A program made the translations under genes and the position numbers. From the IMG/VR virus record IMGVR_UViG_3300012931_000017, positions 1 to 33,414 of that record: DNA of 33,414 nucleotides, one strand, 5' to 3'. The stretch comes from a virus. Below the pieces are notes generated by a model. That model was not told the DNA's origin, did not search any database, and saw only the letters and a program-made list of their open reading frames with translations. Position 1 is the first letter of the stretch. Each line of letters opens with the position of its first letter. Positions 12,811 to 30,589 of this stretch are shown here, piece by piece.

Positions 12811-13908
12811 CTAGTCGTCATCAAAGTTAGGATCATCAGCATCTTGATCAGTAAAAACTATAGGAGCATCTGAGTCCCATCTATCATCTATCTTAAACTT
12901 ATCTTCTATTGACTTAATTCCTACATTCTTTCCATCAAATAGTTCAGTTGTTACAAAATATAAAGCCCATAATAAGCTAGTCACAGAATCATCATGTGCA
13001 TATTCTGGAGATTGATATATATTAGGCTTAATTTCTTCATATAAACTAAGTTCATATATAGTTTGTCTATCAACTAACTTTAACCAATGACTTTCTAAAT
13101 ACCTCTTTAATAATAAATTGGCATTTAGTTTAGTCTTCTTTGTAGCCCTTATACCTAGTCCCTTAGCATCACAATTAATTATAGCATCACATTCATGATC
13201 ATTCCAAATTATATCAGCAACTAGTGACCCTACACCATTATTCTCAATCATCATATTAGCATTATTATAATATTCCGATATAGATACACTAATTTGAGCA
13301 AATTTACTTATTTCTAAAGTATTAGTTCTAAAAACGGCAACCTGTTCAATATCAAGTTCTGAATTTATCTTCAAAATCTGAATAACAGCATAATCATGTC
13401 CAATTCCTTCAGATGAATCTATTCCCATTATATAAAAAGCATTAGGAATCGGATGTTCAAATATTTGAAGTATACCATTCCACTTAGTGTCTATAGGATC
13501 TATAGTTTCTAGTCTCTCCAATACTTCACTATCTATTAATGTATTTGTTGAACCAATAAATTTACAGTTATGATTCAATATATTATTAGCAAAATATCTA
13601 TGAGTGTCTTTTACCTCTAATACATCAAAAACTAATTCCTTTTTTCCAGTTTCTATATTTATTATAGTTTTATAACAGTTCTGGGATTCTAATACTTCTC
13701 CAATATTAAGTTCACAAGCTTCAACTTCTAAATCATCTATTACAAATACATGATGATAAGTTACAGATATGGTTGAATTATCTTCTAAAGTAAATGTTAG
13801 TAAGTCCTGCTCTCCAAGACAAGCTAATCCATCAAAGTCCTTATAGCCTTCATCAGTTTCAATCTGTAGTCCTTCAAATTTTCTGATTTCAATCATATTT
13901 TTATCCAA
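12811..13908 (-). CDS. terL: Terminase large subunit fragment 3: IntC half of split intein 'b' (aa 1-114) fused to the C-terminal nuclease domain extein
   Basis: The N-terminal 114 aa end ...VFDVLEVKDTHRYFANNILNHN|C (intein blocks F/G, terminal HN plus Cys+1). They are paralogous to the IntC half in ORF 16430..17857. The extein ...CKFIGSTNTLIDSEVL...FYIMGIDSSEGIGHDYAVIQIL...YAHDDSVTSLLWALYF is colinear with T4 gp17 ([13 protein letters not shown]...[21 protein letters not shown]...GYHDDLVMSLVIFGW). The track start is TTG. The ATG at M5 (MIEIRKF..., 13894-13896) is more likely. Confidence 0.85.
   Translation of the reverse strand: MDKNMIEIRKFEGLQIETDEGYKDFDGLACLGEQDLLTFTLEDNSTISVTYHHVFVIDDLEVEACELNIGEVLESQNCYKTIINIETGKKELVFDVLEVKDTHRYFANNILNHNCKFIGSTNTLIDSEVLERLETIDPIDTKWNGILQIFEHPIPNAFYIMGIDSSEGIGHDYAVIQILKINSELDIEQVAVFRTNTLEISKFAQISVSISEYYNNANMMIENNGVGSLVADIIWNDHECDAIINCDAKGLGIRATKKTKLNANLLLKRYLESHWLKLVDRQTIYELSLYEEIKPNIYQSPEYAHDDSVTSLLWALYFVTTELFDGKNVGIKSIEDKFKIDDRWDSDAPIVFTDQDADDPNFDDD
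13567..13908 (-). mobile_element. Split intein b, C-terminal half (IntC-b, ~110-114 aa)
   Basis: Residues 1-114 of ORF 12811..13908. The TxxH-like block is STISVTYHHVFVIDD. Block F/G is VFDVLEVKDTHRYFANNILNHN, followed by Cys+1. Confidence 0.8.
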
Positions 13909-14070
13909 ATAAAATCATAAACTTCTCTATCATCAACTGTAGTATGAGCTATTTCATCCTTAGTTTTAATTTATAAAGGTCTATCTTGTCCAAAATATAA
14001 TAAACACTTAAATGCCTTTGTTTAATAAATAACCAAATAAATCCTAACAACCATTCGATAGTAAATTTCA

Positions 14071-14433
14071 TTAGTCTATTTTTTCCTTTTCTATAGTTCC
14101 ATCTTTCTTAACCTCTATATTTAAAAACTCATGATTCTTCTTTAATCTATTTTGTATTTCTTCTTTAGCATCATCAGGAAGTTCCTTCTCATATTTAGCC
14201 TGACAATCATTTACTCCACGTCCACATATCTTGGCTATCTGCTTATCTAACCATTTTACAAAAAATTTCTTCGTAATAGGGTTCCAATACCATGTAGTCT
14301 TCCTATTGTTAGCCCAGTGTATAAATCCCCTATAAATAATAGGAATTATTATCACTAACATCCCATAAAAAGCTTTCGCCCATTCTGAATTAACATACAA
14401 ACCAAAAAAATTAACTATTTCCGTTGAGTCCAT
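14071..14433 (-). CDS. Small membrane protein (one predicted TM helix), unknown function
   Basis: 120 aa. The hydrophobic stretch is AKAFYGMLVIIIPIIY. GAGGA sits 6 nt upstream of the ATG. It lies between the two halves of split intein b. Confidence 0.5.
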   Translation of the reverse strand: MDSTEIVNFFGLYVNSEWAKAFYGMLVIIIPIIYRGFIHWANNRKTTWYWNPITKKFFVKWLDKQIAKICGRGVNDCQAKYEKELPDDAKEEIQNRLKKNHEFLNIEVKKDGTIEKEKID

Positions 14434-14440
14434 ATAATCC

Positions 14441-15007
14441 TCACTTAAATTTAATTATCTCCCGTGAACCATCTTTTGAACTAAATTCGCAAGTCCTTAC
14501 TTCCATCTCCTTACCTTCAAAATATGATGAATCAAATGAAAGGTTTTCTTTTATTCCCTTCTTTATATATGCTATCGTACAATGAGCTATATACTTTGGA
14601 AAATGATTCTCAAAATCTATCCTACGCTTCAATAATGAGTTCAATTCCCGTAACCTTTCAGATTCAATCTCTATCTTCATTACATCACAGTTATCATTCT
14701 CAAAAAAAGAAATCTTCCCGAATCTAACTTTGAAAGGTTCTATTTTTGAAATTATTGGCCTAATCTCCTTGGCTTCTGATGATATTATTCCATATAATAT
14801 AGTGCAGTGAGGATCTAAATCCCTTCCACAATCATCATTTTCTCCCATATATAAGTAGTCATATATTATATGGGAATATCCAAAATCTATTATCTCTTTA
14901 CTTAGTTTATCATCAATGTTAAATTGCAATGATGAATAATTATGACTAATCTCAGTTCTATCCATGATAAATCCTTTCCAAAATCGTTGTTTGAAAATAT
15001 TTATCAT
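14441..15007 (-). CDS. 2H phosphoesterase superfamily protein (LigT / cyclic-nucleotide phosphodiesterase-like; two HxT motifs)
   Basis: Two H-x-T-x motifs are spaced ~75 aa apart: DPHCTILYG and IAHCTIAYI. This is the hallmark of the 2H family. The likely true start is M15 (MDRTEI..., ~14965), which has AAAGGA 9 nt upstream. Confidence 0.6.
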   Translation of the reverse strand: MINIFKQRFWKGFIMDRTEISHNYSSLQFNIDDKLSKEIIDFGYSHIIYDYLYMGENDDCGRDLDPHCTILYGIISSEAKEIRPIISKIEPFKVRFGKISFFENDNCDVMKIEIESERLRELNSLLKRRIDFENHFPKYIAHCTIAYIKKGIKENLSFDSSYFEGKEMEVRTCEFSSKDGSREIIKFK

Positions 15008-15017
15008 TTTAAAACTT

Positions 15018-15218
15018 TTAGTTCTCTACATTATTACATCTATTGCAAATTCCGATAATCTCTTTCTTTGGTTGTTTACATCTACACGTTTCCGTTGAAC
15101 CGCATCTCTTACATTTTAACTTTAAATGATGGTTGGGTTCTGGATACTCCTTCCTTATTTCATCAAAACTCTTATTATTTTCTTCATTATATATTAAATA
15201 ATCTCTAAATTTCATCAT
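15018..15218 (-). CDS. Small zinc-ribbon protein (CxxC-x5-CxC-x10-CxxC)
   Basis: 66 aa: ...CKRCGSTETCRCKQPKKEIIGICNRCNN. GAGAGG sits 5 nt upstream. It overlaps the 3' end of the HNH gene by 14 nt. Confidence 0.45.
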   Translation of the reverse strand: MMKFRDYLIYNEENNKSFDEIRKEYPEPNHHLKLKCKRCGSTETCRCKQPKKEIIGICNRCNNVEN

Positions 15219-16320
15219 GCAACCTCTCTTTTAATAATTTTATAAAATCCTCAGAATTAAGTTTACCTTTTGCACTATTAGTTTGCCTTCCGCAAATAAC
15301 TAAATTATCTATTCCACCAATTATTTTAAAATCTACATTATTTTTAAATCCATAACTTATACTTATTTTGTGATCTATAGTTGGTTGAAATAAATTGTTA
15401 CTTAAATTTATATCAGGATTTATTTTTCTAAATTCTTCATTTAATATCAATTTATCTCTGGTATAATAGTCTAAACCATCCCAGTTCTCAAATAATATTT
15501 TAATATGTTTTCTAGTTTCATTCCAAACTGTAGTATAATAATAATGAATTTCATCTAAATTATCATAAACATACCAATTTTTATTATTAATATTAGTTTC
15601 TCTAACCTTTTCTCTCACCCAGTCTAGTTGCATAACATTATCAACCGAATACCTATTTCTACACGTTATCCTTATAGATTCTGCTATCTTCTCACAAACC
15701 CAATCTAATTTCATATTATGGTCAACGCCATATCTATCAATCAATGTATTAGTTCTATGGTCATTAACTAATCTAATATTCTCTTCAGTCCAGAAAGCCT
15801 TTCTCTTTTCATTTATCTCTTCCTTATTTTCTTCTAAAGCTTTTTCCCTCGCATCCTTAACATGAGGTAATTGCAAAGTTTCCTCTATTCCATACTTTTT
15901 AAAATTAGCTTCCCTTATCCTCTTCTTTCCTATCTCACAACCAGAAAAACTCTTAGTTCCATATTTTAATAAATTAGTTTTTTGAGTCTTCTCTATTACA
16001 GCTCTTTTACTTTCTTCATTTGAAAATAGTTTCTTCTTTATATCACTTAATTTCTTTCTTGATTCCTCTGTTGCCTTTGTACATTTACAACTACAATAAG
16101 GTCTATAACCAACTAAAAATCCTACAAATTTAGTTTCTTTTCCACAAGCTAAACATTTTCCTTCATTCTCTTTTTTATAAAATTTATCATAATATTGCTT
16201 CTCAGTTATATCACCATGATAAACTTTTAAATGACATCTGTAAAAATCACACCACCTATAAAATGTAGTCTCTTTACCACAAATTGAACAAACAAACTTA
16301 ACATTTCTGTCAAATTTCAT
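15205..16320 (-). CDS. Freestanding HNH homing endonuclease with N-terminal Cys-rich DNA-binding module and repeated DNA-binding motifs
   Basis: The C-terminal HNH motif is PTIDHKISISYGFKNN...DNLVICGRQTNSAKGKL. The N-terminal VCSICGKETTFYRWCDFYRCH...EGKCLACGKETKF module is homologous to the N-terminus of ORF 24255..24770. An internal repeat is KLDWVCEKIAESI / QLDWVREKVRETN. AAGGAG precedes the ATG. Confidence 0.75.
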   Translation of the reverse strand: MKFDRNVKFVCSICGKETTFYRWCDFYRCHLKVYHGDITEKQYYDKFYKKENEGKCLACGKETKFVGFLVGYRPYCSCKCTKATEESRKKLSDIKKKLFSNEESKRAVIEKTQKTNLLKYGTKSFSGCEIGKKRIREANFKKYGIEETLQLPHVKDAREKALEENKEEINEKRKAFWTEENIRLVNDHRTNTLIDRYGVDHNMKLDWVCEKIAESIRITCRNRYSVDNVMQLDWVREKVRETNINNKNWYVYDNLDEIHYYYTTVWNETRKHIKILFENWDGLDYYTRDKLILNEEFRKINPDINLSNNLFQPTIDHKISISYGFKNNVDFKIIGGIDNLVICGRQTNSAKGKLNSEDFIKLLKERLHDEI

Positions 16321-16429
16321 ACCTTTACTCCTTTTTTATTTTTATAAATATTGTTATAGAGGTTCTGGAAATTTACTCGCCAGATAGTTTAGATTTACGC
16401 TAATAAATCTAAACTTACCTCACTTTTTA

Positions 16430-17857
16430 TTAATTATTCCAATTCCATAATTCACCGAATGTCAACGTTTTCTTTTCTCCATTCTTATTTATATTTATAC
16501 GAGAAGTTTTTTCAGAACATGCGTATTCCTGATTAAAAAATACAACCCCTCTATCTCTTATTAGATTTTTCTTAAAATTTTCGTCACGATCAGGATGTTC
16601 CCACCAATTTACTTTAACTGGGAAGAATGTATTTTTACCTTTAACTGCATCAATCCAGATATTATAATAATGATTCATACCATTAGGAGTAGAGACTATA
16701 ATAATTTTAGTAGTTTTACCAGAAGAGATAGTAGGCCAAACTGAATCCATAAATTCAGAGGCTATATTAGAAGCTACAAAAGCGAACTCATCTAAAAATA
16801 GACAATTAGAAACTAGTAAACCATTAGCATAAAATCTATTACCATTAGCTACATTAAGTAAATCGTATACATAAGGACTTATGCTTAGATTTTCTGTAGC
16901 GGTAACAGTTTCAAAACCATCTTTAGATTTAATAGAATCACCAACTTTATAAAAATGTCCAAATTGTTTTTCATTATCATTAAAAAACACTTCATGCCTT
17001 CTAGTTAATTCAAGGAATGAATTGTCTGTTGTGATTTTTAGAATATTATTATTTCGTACTTTCTGTTCAGATAGACCATAAAAATTTTGAAATCCATTAG
17101 GAGTTAAGACATCATATTTGGTATTAAGGAATATATTAAACTTCTTTCTTATTTTATCATTAAATAAAAGTCTTAGTTCTTTGATAGTAACATCGGATAC
17201 TTCTTTGGTTAATTTATCTCTAATGGTTACTTTATTATTTTCCGTTAGGCAGTTTATAGAATAACCTCTAATAGCAGAACTAGCTGTTGATGCTGATAAT
17301 ATTCTAGTTCCATTACCTAAAGTTATAGAAGCTTTATTCCACCCACCTTCAACTATACCTGGTTGTAACCAATAAGGTAAATTCTCATAAACCATTTTTA
17401 TTCTATTCATAATTTCAATAGCAGTTTTCTCTTTATTAGCTAAAACAGCTACTGTTTTATGTTCATTAAATATTGCGTAGTGAGTTAAATAAACTGAAGA
17501 AACTGTAGTATTATGTGAGAGTATTCCTGAAGTGTAATATGTATGGTTTTCTGAACCAACCGATAAATCATACATACTTTCTTTATAACCAAGATTCCTT
17601 ACCGATTTAACAGATTCTAATCCAGTCTTGGTTATTATCCTTTGCCCAATTTTCAAATCCTTCGTAAAGACTTCATTGTAAAATTCATCCATTACAATGT
17701 GATCATCGGCACATTGTAATGTATAATTGTCAGTTGATAGTTCCCATACTTCAAATTCTATAGTTTTATTGGTATGAGTTATATCTTCCCATCCAGTATC
17801 AGTCTCTACTTCCCAGTCATCAACTTCAAACGTTTCAATAAACTTATCTGCTATCAT
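16430..17857 (-). CDS. terL: Terminase large subunit fragment 2: IntC-a (aa 1-116), ATPase-domain extein, contiguous mini-intein (aa 203-351), extein with Walker B, then IntN-b (aa 447-475)
   Basis: The extein TTVSSVYLTHYAIFNEHKTVAVLANKEKTAIE...LQPGIVEGGWNKASITLGNG...STASSAIRGYSIN is colinear with T4 gp17 [29 protein letters not shown]...LQPGIVEWNKGSIELDNG...ASSPDAVRGNSFA. The following extein CLFLDEFAFVASN...SSGKTTKIIIVSTPNGMNHYYNIWIDAVKGK matches MIYIDECAFIPNF...SSGRRSKIIITTTPNGLNHFYDIWTAAVEGK. The segments between are intein-like (see intein features). Confidence 0.9.
   Translation of the reverse strand: MIADKFIETFEVDDWEVETDTGWEDITHTNKTIEFEVWELSTDNYTLQCADDHIVMDEFYNEVFTKDLKIGQRIITKTGLESVKSVRNLGYKESMYDLSVGSENHTYYTSGILSHNTTVSSVYLTHYAIFNEHKTVAVLANKEKTAIEIMNRIKMVYENLPYWLQPGIVEGGWNKASITLGNGTRILSASTASSAIRGYSINCLTENNKVTIRDKLTKEVSDVTIKELRLLFNDKIRKKFNIFLNTKYDVLTPNGFQNFYGLSEQKVRNNNILKITTDNSFLELTRRHEVFFNDNEKQFGHFYKVGDSIKSKDGFETVTATENLSISPYVYDLLNVANGNRFYANGLLVSNCLFLDEFAFVASNIASEFMDSVWPTISSGKTTKIIIVSTPNGMNHYYNIWIDAVKGKNTFFPVKVNWWEHPDRDENFKKNLIRDRGVVFFNQEYACSEKTSRININKNGEKKTLTFGELWNWNN
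16433..16519 (-). mobile_element. Split intein b, N-terminal half (IntN-b, 29 aa) ending at the ORF stop
   Basis: ...FNQEYA|CSEKTSRININKNGEKKTLTFGELWNWNN*. The extein FNQEYA plus CKFIGSTNTLIDSEVL (from ORF 12811..13908) aligns without a gap to T4 [22 protein letters not shown]. IntN-b is similar to IntN-a (KIRIRNKNTGKIVELSIGQF vs RININKNGEKKTLTFGELW). The Cys codon aca is at 16517-16519. Confidence 0.75.
16805..17251 (-). mobile_element. Contiguous 149-aa mini-intein (no endonuclease domain) inserted just upstream of the terminase Walker B
   Basis: It interrupts RGYSIN|...|CLFLDEFAF (T4: RGNSFAMIYIDECAF). It starts with Cys (CLTENNKVTIRD...; the tgc codon is at 17249-17251). It contains the T-x-x-H block ELTRRHEVF. 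It ends ...NRFYANGLLVSN followed by Cys+1. The penultimate residue is Ser rather than His. Confidence 0.75.
17510..17857 (-). mobile_element. Split intein a, C-terminal half (IntC-a, 116 aa)
   Basis: MIADKFIETFEVDDWEVETDTGWEDITH...YTLQCADDHIVMDE...MYDLSVGSENHTYYTSGILSHN|T. Block F/G is (D-L-x-V...H-x-Y...GIL-x-HN), followed by Thr+1. That Thr restores the P-loop GK-T. The Asn116 codon is att at 17510-17512, and the Thr codon agt is at 17507-17509. Confidence 0.85.
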
Positions 17858-24847: not shown

Positions 24848-26086
24848 TTAATATCCGGCGATGATCTTCGATAAATTTGAATATTGAACAAGCCTATAAT
24901 ACCGACCTGCCCCAAGTAAGCTATCAGTAACTGCATAACGACTTCTAACACCAATAACAGGAGAAAAGTCTCTATAATCAGTAGCAGTATTCATAGCATT
25001 CATGATATAAGGAGAGAGGATGACACCCGCGTCATTTTGACCTTCGCCTTTATAACCAACTAGAGCATAATCACCAGAAGCATATTGATCACGGAACACT
25101 TTAATAGTAGAATTAATAGTACCGATTTCAGCTACACCTGCTTGAGTAGGATTAACTTTAGGATCATTTCCGCAGAAGTTAGGTCTTGCTGCTTGGAGAG
25201 CAGTAGCCACAGCTGGAGAAACGATAGCAAAGTTACCAGCACCTCTACGAGTAGTAACGGCAATAGTATTAGACTGATGAACGATAGAAGTAACGATAGA
25301 ACTAATCTGTTCTTGAGACCATCGACCATCAACAAAAGAAGTACCAGAAGTTGCGTTAAGATCTAACTGTTTAGCAGCTGCCCCACCAGTACCAGTAACA
25401 GCAGTAGTTTTCAACTTACCGATTATTTCTCTATCCATTTCAGCAATGATTTCATATTGAAGAACTCTTACAATTTCTCTCTGAATATCAATATTTTGCA
25501 TTGCAGAAATATCTTCAGCAGCTTCAAGACTAAAAGATGCTGCTAATTTTCTTGATTTAGCGGTAATAGCTACGCTTTCAAGGATTAATTTAAGCTGAGG
25601 GAAATCCGTACCAATTTTCCAAGCTTCCGCTTCAGATGTCGAAGCACCAGTACCAGCACCAGAGGTCGAATAAGTTGCTGAAGTACCAGAAGTAGAACCT
25701 GAGAAACCAGAATAAATAGGAACCTGATCCCAAGCTGCTTCAGGGCCATTGACACCAGAACTTTCACCATAGATAACACGAAGTACATAAGCTAATCCAA
25801 CTGGAGTATTCATAGCTTGGATACCTACGCAATTTTGAGCAAAGAGAGCCGGAAAGGTTCTTCTCATAAGAGCAAGAGAGATTGGTTTATAGGCAGCACT
25901 AGCACCCAACTCACCAATAGAAGTAGTACTCATACCTTCGTTCATCACTTTAATATTATCTTGAGCTTCCATAAGAATCGCCATATTTTCTTTAAGATCC
26001 TCAGAAAGATTTTCGATAGACATAGAGCCTAACTCAGCTGTATTACTCCATTTAGTAATAAGCTCTTGAATATTTGTTTTTTCCAT
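24848..26086 (-). CDS. Major capsid protein (gp23-like)
   Basis: 412 aa. ...KPISLALMRRTFPALFAQNCVGIQAMNTPVGLAYVLR matches T4 gp23 ...PLVRRVFPELIAHE(I/V)VGVQPM..P.G. GGAGGA sits 9 nt upstream of the ATG (plus 'cctcc' 26096-26100). Confidence 0.85.
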   Translation of the reverse strand: MEKTNIQELITKWSNTAELGSMSIENLSEDLKENMAILMEAQDNIKVMNEGMSTTSIGELGASAAYKPISLALMRRTFPALFAQNCVGIQAMNTPVGLAYVLRVIYGESSGVNGPEAAWDQVPIYSGFSGSTSGTSATYSTSGAGTGASTSEAEAWKIGTDFPQLKLILESVAITAKSRKLAASFSLEAAEDISAMQNIDIQREIVRVLQYEIIAEMDREIIGKLKTTAVTGTGGAAAKQLDLNATSGTSFVDGRWSQEQISSIVTSIVHQSNTIAVTTRRGAGNFAIVSPAVATALQAARPNFCGNDPKVNPTQAGVAEIGTINSTIKVFRDQYASGDYALVGYKGEGQNDAGVILSPYIMNAMNTATDYRDFSPVIGVRSRYAVTDSLLGAGRYYRLVQYSNLSKIIAGY

Positions 26087-26979: not shown

Positions 26980-27639
26980 TTATAAATGAACATTACTCAA
27001 ATCATGTAAAAATTCATTCATATATTGAAGTAAAATTTTAGAGTCACCTTTTTTATCTAATTTTACTTCTAAATTTGATACAGCTACTTCAACTATTTGA
27101 CCACCTTCGGTTATAATATATTCTTTATTTTCAAGAATACCATCAACGAAGGCACCAGGAGCTGAAGGATCTGCAACTATATCAACAGTTATTAATCTAT
27201 AATCATCATTAACTACACAACCATTTACTGTACCAACACCTCTAGTACTTACACCAAGTCCGATTTTATCTTTTAATAGAACTTGAGCAATTAACCCTTT
27301 AGGTGTATCGAGTATTTTAGCTATTCCTATACCATCATTATCCATCATTTGTAAAGATTCGATGATATGACTAACTCTATCTAAGTTAATAGTTGGTGAA
27401 GGTGGATGATCTAATTCACCCATAGATCTTCGATTAACAATTTTATCTTGGAATTTGTTAATTTCTCGTTCACAAATAAGTTTTGGATATTTTCTTCCAT
27501 TTCTATTTTGAACTTCTGCTTGAAGAAATGGGCCTTTAATTTTATATGAAGGTTTTCCATTGTCAACACTTTCACATAAAATTTCTAAATCTTCATAAGA
27601 TAGAAATTCGGTTAAATATTTCAACATATTTCTCCTCAT
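26980..27639 (-). CDS. Prohead core protease (gp21-like)
   Basis: 219 aa. ...MGELDHPPSPTINLDRVSHII...GLGVSTRGVGTV resembles T4 gp21 (GELDHP / G(F)STRG). It sits in the conserved position upstream of the scaffold gene. Confidence 0.7.
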   Translation of the reverse strand: MRRNMLKYLTEFLSYEDLEILCESVDNGKPSYKIKGPFLQAEVQNRNGRKYPKLICEREINKFQDKIVNRRSMGELDHPPSPTINLDRVSHIIESLQMMDNDGIGIAKILDTPKGLIAQVLLKDKIGLGVSTRGVGTVNGCVVNDDYRLITVDIVADPSAPGAFVDGILENKEYIITEGGQIVEVAVSNLEVKLDKKGDSKILLQYMNEFLHDLSNVHL

Positions 27640-30340: not shown

Positions 30341-30589
30341 TTAATTATAATTAAAGTTATCGGAAATTCCATTTGATCTTAGGTCATGAGCAAACTCAGA
30401 CCAAAATTTATTTATAAAATCTAAATCTAATTCTTTTCCATATTCATTAATAAGTTCAATAAAATTAGTTTCATCTAATGATTTAATATTCTTATTTTTC
30501 AAAAAAGATATAAAATCCATTACTTGTTTATATTCTGGAAATAAAACATATTCAACTAAATAGTTATCTATATATTCATTAAACTTCAT
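30341..30589 (-). CDS. Hypothetical protein
   Basis: 82 aa, ATG start. It overlaps the upstream gene by 11 nt. Confidence 0.35.
   Translation of the reverse strand: MKFNEYIDNYLVEYVLFPEYKQVMDFISFLKNKNIKSLDETNFIELINEYGKELDLDFINKFWSEFAHDLRSNGISDNFNYN

Follow-up and report, generated by a model that had tools for sequence, protein, structure and literature searches.

The 33,414-nt stretch of viral DNA analysed here (IMG/VR record IMGVR_UViG_3300012931_000017, positions 1 to 33,414; hereafter the window) carries a terminase gene, terL, that is broken by split inteins, and it raises the question of why the gap between the halves of one of them, split intein b, holds several genes where a lone endonuclease gene would be expected. 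An earlier reading made from the letters alone (hereafter the sequence-only reading) had described four tightly packed genes in this gap, coding for an HNH endonuclease (open reading frame 1, ORF1), a zinc-ribbon protein (ORF2), a 2H phosphoesterase (ORF3) and a small membrane protein (ORF4), and had proposed them as an anti-defence or auxiliary island, a candidate functional unit that may hitch-hike on endonuclease mobility. The analysis presented here argues for a composite island of accessory genes, which probably consists of three independent layers lodged in a fractured T4-type terL at split-intein site b.

The first layer would be the free-standing DUF7487/HNH gene, the original and most frequent gene in the gap and one of the kind that creates and maintains such fractures. 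The second would be the zinc-ribbon and 2H proteins, working together as an old, vertically inherited pair of the terL neighbourhood, which in the sub-lineage of the window may have come to lie upstream, and not downstream, of the gene coding for the C-terminal intein half and the C-terminal part of TerL. The third, a single-pass membrane protein and possibly an additional 40-aa ORF, would be an unrelated insertion. The gap itself would act as a tolerated, late-transcribed insertion site. The 2H enzyme would most likely be a metal-independent phosphodiesterase of the Acb1 type, cleaving nucleotide immune signals such as the cyclic oligonucleotides of CBASS (antiphage signalling based on molecules of this kind), and would be produced in the late phase of infection, together with the products of the head genes; either it or its zinc-ribbon partner may enter the prohead by means of a T4-like capsid-targeting peptide, be trimmed by the prohead protease and be injected with the DNA.

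Split intein b and the genes in its gap

What the window contains is a T4-like myophage's late structural module; all of its genes lie on the minus strand, and its G + C content is about 28%. Its terL gene lies in pieces: an N fragment (18952..19341), a middle fragment (16430..17857) and a C fragment (12811..13908), the last two separated by split intein b. The N-terminal half of this intein (IntN-b, 16433..16519, minus strand), 29 residues long (CSEKTSRININKNGEKKTLTFGELWNWNN), forms the C-terminus of the middle fragment, and its Cys1 (C447 of the 475-aa ORF) directly follows the extein ...NQEYA. The C-terminal half (IntC-b, 13567..13908, minus strand) has 114 residues, with a block B TYHH, a terminal HN and a +1 Cys, and the downstream ORF 12811..13908 reads ...TYHH...NNILNHN followed by CKFIGSTNTLID. 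Residues H53, H113, N114 and C115 of this 365-aa ORF are invariant across four loci, and IntC-b scores 24.4 bits against the Pfam Intein_splicing model, under its cutoff of 35.8. The C-extein (12811..13566, minus strand) carries the RNaseH-like nuclease domain of the terminase (Pfam Terminase_6C, 30.7 bits) and is 43-69% identical to its relatives. At site b the unbroken TerL of three related loci (L031, L033 and L024) reads QEFQ-CKFLGASNTLID, the whole junction being QEFQCKFLGASNTLID; since these uninterrupted proteins read straight through the junction, the exteins of the window abut exactly. At least 10 loci, among them L002, L004, L006, L007 and L085, are likewise split at site b, and 18 are unsplit. 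We infer from these sequences that TerL would be rebuilt by protein trans-splicing regardless of what the gap contains, and for this reason the gap would be tolerated as an insertion site.

Fractured genes were described by Dassa, London, Stoddard, Schueler-Furman & Pietrokovski (2009, PMC2677866), one gp17 terminase locus included. Likewise, at site b the terL gene of the window is parted into two same-strand ORFs where relatives are contiguous, the catalytic residues Cys1, TxxH, HN and +1 Cys are borne by the two intein halves, and a free-standing endonuclease, here a DUF7487 protein with an HNH fold, lies in the gap. In the loci of PMC2677866 the spacer is 27-51 nt long and an endonuclease of the GIY-YIG or Vsr-like type is the sole gene between the halves, whereas the window has a spacer of 109 nt, an endonuclease of the DUF7487/HNH type, an atypically split intein (29 + 114 residues) and, after the endonuclease, 3-4 more non-endonuclease ORFs (~1.3 kb).

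The anatomy of the gap agrees with the sequence-only reading in the position of the four ORFs between the halves of split intein b and in the presence of more genes than the expected single endonuclease. In gene order, ORF1 (15205..16320, 371 aa) and ORF2 (15018..15218, 66 aa) overlap by 14 nt, ORF2 and ORF3 (14441..15007, 188 aa) are 10 nt apart, or 52 nt if ORF3 starts at 14965, and ORF3 and ORF4 (14071..14433, 120 aa) are 7 nt apart, all on the minus strand. Each gene had been credited with its own Shine-Dalgarno (SD) site, and four were indeed found: AAGGAG (ORF1), GAGAGG (ORF2), AAAGGA (ORF3) and GTGAGGA (ORF4), that of ORF3 serving the internal ATG at 14965 and not the start at 15007, which has no good one. 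Public gene callers start ORF3 at 14965, giving a 174-aa protein (P0001), and an exact-sequence look-up found this form only, the 188-aa form not being on record. ORF1 to ORF4 are real genes, because homologues were detected for each of them. The possible fifth ORF (40 aa, 13949..14071, minus strand) overlaps the stop of ORF4 by 1 nt and is of uncertain status: it has no homologue in 75 loci and is uncalled in the public annotation of the source contig, a 97.8-kb metagenome contig in ENA (ERZ27227667 k141_4222033).

ORF1 is a free-standing homing-endonuclease-like gene with 83 homologues. Its product starts with Cys/His zinc modules at the N-terminus, continues with repeated helical modules of the KYGV..Q type (DUF7487) and ends in an HNH domain. 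The latter has a beta-beta-alpha fold with the conserved His, Asn and Asn/His; it matches none of the Pfam HNH models, the homologue in L006 matches HNH_4 at no better than E=0.13, and a sequence profile search of the PDB found nothing.

The 109-nt spacer between the terL middle fragment and ORF1 (16321..16429, minus strand) has a minimum free energy of -23.9 kcal/mol (z = -3.9), none of 200 shuffles being as stable. Right after the stop codon of the middle fragment it forms a 12-bp hairpin, and a second, weaker fold pairs CCUC with the GGAG of the endonuclease SD. Translational control has been described for homing-endonuclease genes of T4, and the spacer fold resembles such control, in which we infer that it may have a role. 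Among transcription signals, the T4 late-promoter motif TATAAATA has 17 matches where 14 +/- 3.7 are expected, which is uninformative, and its two copies upstream of ORF1 fall within AT-rich ININ codons of IntN-b, while scans for sigma-70 promoters and terminators stayed at chance level.

Split intein b is one of three intein insertions in terL (16430..19341, minus strand), the others being split intein a and a contiguous mini-intein. Split intein a has a short IntN (C/INYWGKIRIRN...) and a gap between the N and middle fragments that holds a gene coding for a 314-aa zinc-finger endonuclease-like protein (17844..18788, minus strand) with a weak Vsr/MTES_1575 match. The mini-intein (CLTENN...LLVSN/C) lies within the middle fragment, just before the Walker B motif LFLDEFAF.

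Content of the gap in related loci

About 60 distinct related terL loci were gathered and annotated with profiles of every window gene. An endonuclease alone is the usual occupant of gap b in these loci. The DUF7487/HNH gene is by itself in L006, L007, L010, L019, L087 and L088, an endonuclease of another type is found in L012 and L014, and the gap is empty in L013 (~350 nt). Richer contents are those of L002 (2H, a GDSL hydrolase and a 113-aa ORF, with no endonuclease or HNH gene), L004 (TnpB, HNH, a 126-aa zinc-ribbon protein, 2H and a 70-aa ORF), L085 (HNH, a 381-aa fusion protein and a 71-aa ORF) and the close relative L086, where a 52%-identical HNH gene is followed by three unrelated small ORFs of 82, 146 and 72 aa. 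In four loci (L006, L019, L041 and L014) the 2H gene lies not in the gap but downstream of terL, ahead of the sheath gene; of these, L041 has a TerL that is unsplit at site b.

These distributions bear on the possibility that the four genes of the window are a single mobile cassette of anti-defence function, which spreads by hitch-hiking when the HNH gene homes. The tight packing and common orientation of the genes directly downstream of the endonuclease would fit such a cassette, as would L004 and L085, where HNH is likewise followed by a zinc ribbon and then by 2H, and the fact that homing co-converts flanking DNA. However, six of the loci have the HNH gene with no companion, 2H is present without it in L002 and away from the gap in four loci, the cargo of L086 is a different one, and homologues of the membrane protein are found only in unrelated contexts. 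Moreover, across all locus pairs the identity of 2H follows that of the C-terminal part of TerL and of the sheath protein (e.g. 69/81/85%, 49/57/69% and 38/44/45%). Because its divergence tracks that of these core genes, the 2H gene is best seen as long established near terL in this lineage and passed on vertically, and not as recent cargo of the endonuclease. We consider a single mobile cassette very improbable, and the hitch-hiking proposed by the sequence-only reading is not retained.

A tblastn search of the phage records with the 2H protein gave only five weak matches, and a metagenome scan with the 2H alignment returned four loci, three of them already known. In the more distant phage L089 (5240..8549), a 2H member (P0060, N-terminus MKFKHFLAE/N) lies two genes downstream of terL, and the ORFs between the two have vaguely similar N-termini.

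Other genes were seen in different positions around terL. Upstream of the terL N fragment, the window codes for a GDSL/SGNH hydrolase (19346..20155, minus strand; Pfam, 24.2 bits), and a homologue lies inside gap b of L002 (10552..11346), directly after the 2H gene; from this difference in position it follows that accessory genes shuffle around terL. Genes of the TnpB / IS605 OrfB type occur in gap b of L004 (2837..3910, minus strand), in L085 (11304..) and in L015 (3080..4201), thus in a split-intein gap or beside the terL module of related phages.

The zinc ribbon, the 2H domain and the membrane protein

The layered composition proposed for the island rests in part on how the remaining three genes are associated. 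ORF2 codes for a 66-aa protein (ZnR66) with a CxxC..CxC..CxxC pattern and no significant Pfam model. In L085 a single 381-aa ORF joins, in this order, an N-terminus resembling a T4 capsid targeting sequence (MKTLREYLIE), a zinc ribbon of the 126-aa type, a ZnR66-like module and a 2H domain. Residues 13-61 of ZnR66 are 56% identical to residues 130-179 of this fusion (E=1e-15), and ORF3 is 49% identical to its 2H domain (E=6e-55). Since L085 fuses the homologues in the gene order of the window, ORF2 and ORF3 are likely to be functionally linked. Moreover, when read by eye, without an alignment tool, the residues that the long form of ORF3 adds in frame before the 14965 start (MINIFKQRFWKGFIMDRTE) look like the linker of the fusion, which suggests a history of fission or fusion of the two genes. 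The possibility that ZnR66 is an orthologue of the 126-aa zinc-ribbon protein of L004 was rejected, phmmer giving no match; the two are different modules, as L085 has both types side by side.

ORF4 codes for a protein with one predicted membrane-spanning segment, the hydrophobic stretch AFYGMLVIIIPIIYRGFIH (residues 21-39, Kyte-Doolittle mean 1.66), so that the zinc-ribbon and membrane labels of the sequence-only reading both hold. Nine homologues were found (37-66% identity), and the two that were looked up lie in non-terL contexts, next to a gene for a giant Ig-like protein or amid further small ORFs. Profile annotation of the related terL loci detected none. ORF4 thus appears to be an accessory gene unrelated to the rest of the island.

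Judged by these comparisons, the zinc ribbon and the 2H protein appear to be the sole real unit within the island. The four genes are never found together elsewhere among the related loci: of the two ORFs whose company with 2H had been proposed as a check, the zinc ribbon recurs and the membrane protein does not, and the notion of a functional unit survives for the fused pair only.

Affinities of the 2H phosphoesterase

ORF3 carries the twin HxT motifs of a 2H enzyme, both in the form HCT (H53 and H128 in the numbering of the 174-aa protein), and matches Pfam 2_5_RNA_ligase2 with 32.2 bits (cutoff 27). H53, T55, H128 and T130 are invariant or nearly so across 95 relatives. The structure model has a predicted local distance difference test (pLDDT) score of 94.9, and the top fold matches are without exception 2H enzymes, in agreement with the fold and the relation to Acb1 seen in the sequence-only reading. 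A Foldseek comparison with the PDB confirmed the 2H fold and did not separate Acb1, LigT, Usb1 and AKAP18, so that the structural comparison proposed earlier settles the fold and not the ranking of these enzymes.

The 2H family, retrieved with a profile of three close homologues, is very large (4,883 representative clusters at E<=1e-3, 3,159 at E<=1e-10). Many members have about 180 aa, and many others are domains inside proteins of 1,000-5,600 aa that also carry InPase, SLT, CCA-adding (nucleotidyltransferase) and ligase modules, i.e. polyvalent proteins. This phage 2H clade was noted by Iyer, Burroughs, Anand, de Souza & Aravind (2017, PMC5512222) as never associated with RNA ligases, and these authors predicted that polyvalent proteins are packaged in the virion and injected, and that their 2H domains degrade nucleotide signals or act as RNases. 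The 2H domains of polyvalent proteins belong to the same family as ORF3, which differs from them in standing alone, with a separate zinc-ribbon partner, and in being lodged in a split-intein gap.

Sequence signatures place this family closer to Acb1 than to LigT, which fold ranking alone does not do. Among solved structures, the family profile matches Acb1 best (9q2g, E=1.3e-6; 7t26, E=1.4e-4), ahead of LigT PH0099 (~2.5e-3), and 83 of the 95 members match Pfam Acb1 at E<=1e-3, the L085 fusion protein exceeding the cutoff of that model (28.8 bits). The signatures HxTxxY and Y.PHxT(I/L)(A/S)Y are common to the family and Acb1, while LigT has HxTLGR; in the second motif, an invariant Tyr (HCTIAY) takes the place of the Arg of LigT PH0099 (HITLGR). 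In an hhalign alignment with T4 Acb1 (E=3.3e-5), W74 corresponds to F88 and F107 to F122, two of the four stacking aromatics being conserved.

Acb1 is the anti-CBASS 2H nuclease of phages T4 (gene 57B) and FBB1 (Hobbs et al. 2022, PMC9117128; PDB 7T26/7T27; Pfam PF23474). ORF3 shares with it the 2H fold, the HxT/HxT tetrad, both signatures, the aromatics at W74/F107 and a phage origin. It differs in being about 25 residues longer, with ~17-18% identity, in being paired or fused with a zinc ribbon and in lying in a terL/structural module, T4 Acb1 being next to ipI. The affinity is further tempered by the score of ORF3 against Pfam Acb1 (PF23474), 18.4 bits, which is under the 27-bit cutoff, and by the remaining aromatics, since Y12 of T4 Acb1 aligns to a non-aromatic residue and W147 and the C-terminal lid fall outside the aligned region. 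ORF3 may thus be Acb1-like in mechanism, at an even chance or slightly less, and is not a demonstrated member of the Acb1 family.

The enzyme might alternatively be an RNA 2',3'-cyclic phosphodiesterase of the LigT/ThpR type (TIGR02258; PDB 5H7F, 1VGJ, 4QAK) with a role in RNA repair; it would then heal tRNA or mRNA ends produced by the host's anticodon nucleases or by other RNases that need no metal. We regard this as unlikely. ORF3 scores 24.8 bits against the LigT/ThpR equivalog of NCBIfam, far from the cutoff of 65.7 (NCBIfam has no Acb1 model, and T4 Acb1 itself is unmatched there), it has, as in Acb1, the Tyr in place of the Arg after the second HxT, and its family profile ranks Acb1 above LigT. 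Neither the window nor the ~60 terL loci contain an RNA ligase or polynucleotide kinase gene, in line with the lack of association with RNA ligases reported for the phage clade (PMC5512222).

Less probable still is that it acts as an RNase or 2'-5' phosphodiesterase like Usb1 or ns2, directed at host RNA or 2'-5' signals and serving host shut-down and not anti-CBASS defence. Strong fold matches include human Usb1, AKAP18 and the phosphodiesterases ns2/VP3 of viruses, and both RNase and signal-degrading activities have been proposed for the phage 2H clade (PMC5512222). At the sequence level, however, there is no affinity to Usb1 or ns2, and the AKAP7-type Pfam model matches 17 of 95 family members, compared with 83 of 95 for Acb1. 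A literature search on the BCSR5 phosphodiesterase found nothing. Counter-defence is kept as the most plausible reading of the 2H protein, and it is this part of the anti-defence island of the sequence-only reading that stands; an island of all four genes does not, the membrane protein being unrelated.

Capsid-targeting-like peptides near the 2H genes

The proposal that the Acb1-type enzyme or its partner may be packaged derives from short N-terminal peptides. The T4 internal proteins IPI, IPII and IPIII share the capsid targeting sequence (CTS) MKTYQEFIAE (Mullaney & Black 1996, reviewed in PMC9026906 and PMC3012670); they begin MKTYQEFIAE or MKTFKEFTST. In published T4 mutagenesis (PMC9026906), targeting depends on residues 4 and 7 and processing by gp21 on residues 8 and 10. 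Many ORFs around 2H in the relatives begin similarly, e.g. MKTLREYLIE, MAKFKQFIAE, MGKFKEYLIE or MSTWKEFLNE. With a pattern fixed beforehand from PMC9026906 (aromatic at 4 and 7, I/L at 8, E at 10), 11 of 1,928 N-terminal ATG positions matched, compared with 0 of 4,031 internal and 1 of 1,777 opposite-strand positions. Among the matching proteins are the L085 fusion and, in L004, the one encoded just upstream of 2H (N-terminus MKTLREYLIE in both), as well as one in L014 (MAKFKQFIAE); the 2H neighbourhoods that carry the pattern are those of L004, L085, L014, L036 and L040. A similar peptide stands just before the 2H domain in 25 of 95 family members (2.1 +/- 1.4 in shuffled sequences), by a second pattern, devised once the data were known. 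The 2H proteins linked to terL themselves begin MRFREIYE, MGKFIDLYE or MKFKRFVTSLTE, each ending in (L/I/M)xE.

A processing enzyme is encoded in the window outside the island, a prohead protease of the gp21 type (26980..27639, minus strand; Pfam Peptidase_S77, 86 bits), adjoined by the genes for the scaffold protein (T4_CASP, 52.9 bits), gp23 and the portal. This protease would recognise the capsid-targeting-like peptides at their (L/I)xE sites. As in the case of IPI-III, diverse small proteins share a 10-residue N-terminal peptide in a phage with a gp21-type protease; unlike IPI-III, the proteins concerned here are not homologous to the T4 ones, and their genes lie at terL and not at the T4 ip loci. 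Ten proteins with such N-termini were compared with Pfam, and nearly all are of no known family.

Together with the protease, the resemblance of the T4 Acb1 N-terminus to that of IPI and the reported triggering of CBASS by gp21, the peptides suggest late expression of the zinc ribbon and 2H module, possibly with encapsidation and injection. In its full form, the proposal is that T4-like phages carry Acb1-like 2H enzymes and a zinc-ribbon partner as internal proteins targeted to the capsid, loaded by a CTS, trimmed by gp21 at (L/I)xE and co-injected with the DNA; we advance it tentatively and hold it to be rather doubtful. The window itself speaks less clearly for it than the relatives: the N-terminus of ZnR66 (MMKFRDYLIY) fits at positions 4, 7 and 8 and lacks Glu10, hence a partial match, that of the window 2H protein (MDRTE..., or MINIFKQRFW... 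in the long form) does not fit, and a literature search for a link between T4 Acb1/57B and the virion found none among the papers covered. If packaging occurs in the phage of the window, 2H would therefore have to ride on ZnR66, having no peptide of its own.

Similar N-termini were seen elsewhere. Batteries of small, mostly unannotated ORFs of the M[GA]KFKE[YF]L.xE type, which fits the T4 determinants, are present in L040 (2491..11711), L014 (4346..6256) and L036 (6889..8888); L040 has at least 10 of them. One ORF carries a DGQHR motif like that of ParB, another a SWIM finger and a third an NT5C-like domain. In T4 (L076, NC_000866 73591..74410), Acb1 (gene 57B) begins MMEFKDFST and the adjacent IPI begins MKTFKEFTST. 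Two small ORFs in the head module of the window (30341..30589 and 21835..22233, minus strand) begin MKFNEYIDNYLVE and MLLKEYMIQQE and are loosely similar to the pattern.

Other features of the window

Besides the portal, the scaffold, gp23 and the prohead protease of the gp21 type, the window codes for gp13-15 and for a sheath and a tube protein. A megablast comparison with 50,697 phage records, made with 8.5 kb, found no match, hence no close cultured phage. Over the gp23 major capsid gene (24500..26000) the G + C content reaches 0.40, compared with ~0.28 elsewhere. Near gp23 lies a 171-aa ORF (24255..24770, minus strand) related to the N-terminal and middle parts of the DUF7487 endonuclease (phmmer E=4e-21, for an identical ORF of L001), which is probably a second, possibly truncated, homing-endonuclease-like gene.

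Implications

Earlier descriptions exist for the frame of a fractured gene, for the HNH gene and for the 2H fold. What is new is the accumulation of non-endonuclease genes in a split-intein gap, the pairing of zinc ribbon and 2H enzyme as a module, and the presence of capsid-targeting-like peptides in an Acb1-like family. Split-intein gaps may thus be more than parking places for endonucleases, with accessory genes gathering and turning over in them; in related phages, no fewer than four distinct sets of non-endonuclease genes occupy such gaps. As a module, the zinc ribbon and the 2H protein are a candidate for a new branch of immune-signal-degrading enzymes, within a very large and uncharacterised phage 2H family related to Acb1.

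The capsid-targeting-like peptides predict that anti-signalling enzymes could be delivered pre-made in the virion. If this is true, the next host would meet a ready-made immune-signal-degrading enzyme, the terL split-intein gap and the terL-sheath junction would be late-transcribed safe harbours for genes of ejected proteins, and the resemblance of MMEFKDFST to the N-terminus of IPI would extend capsid targeting to the founding Acb1. According to a 2026 preprint (PMC12991175), the prohead protease gp21 of T4 triggers CBASS late in infection, which gives interest to a link between the protease, late expression and an Acb1-like enzyme.

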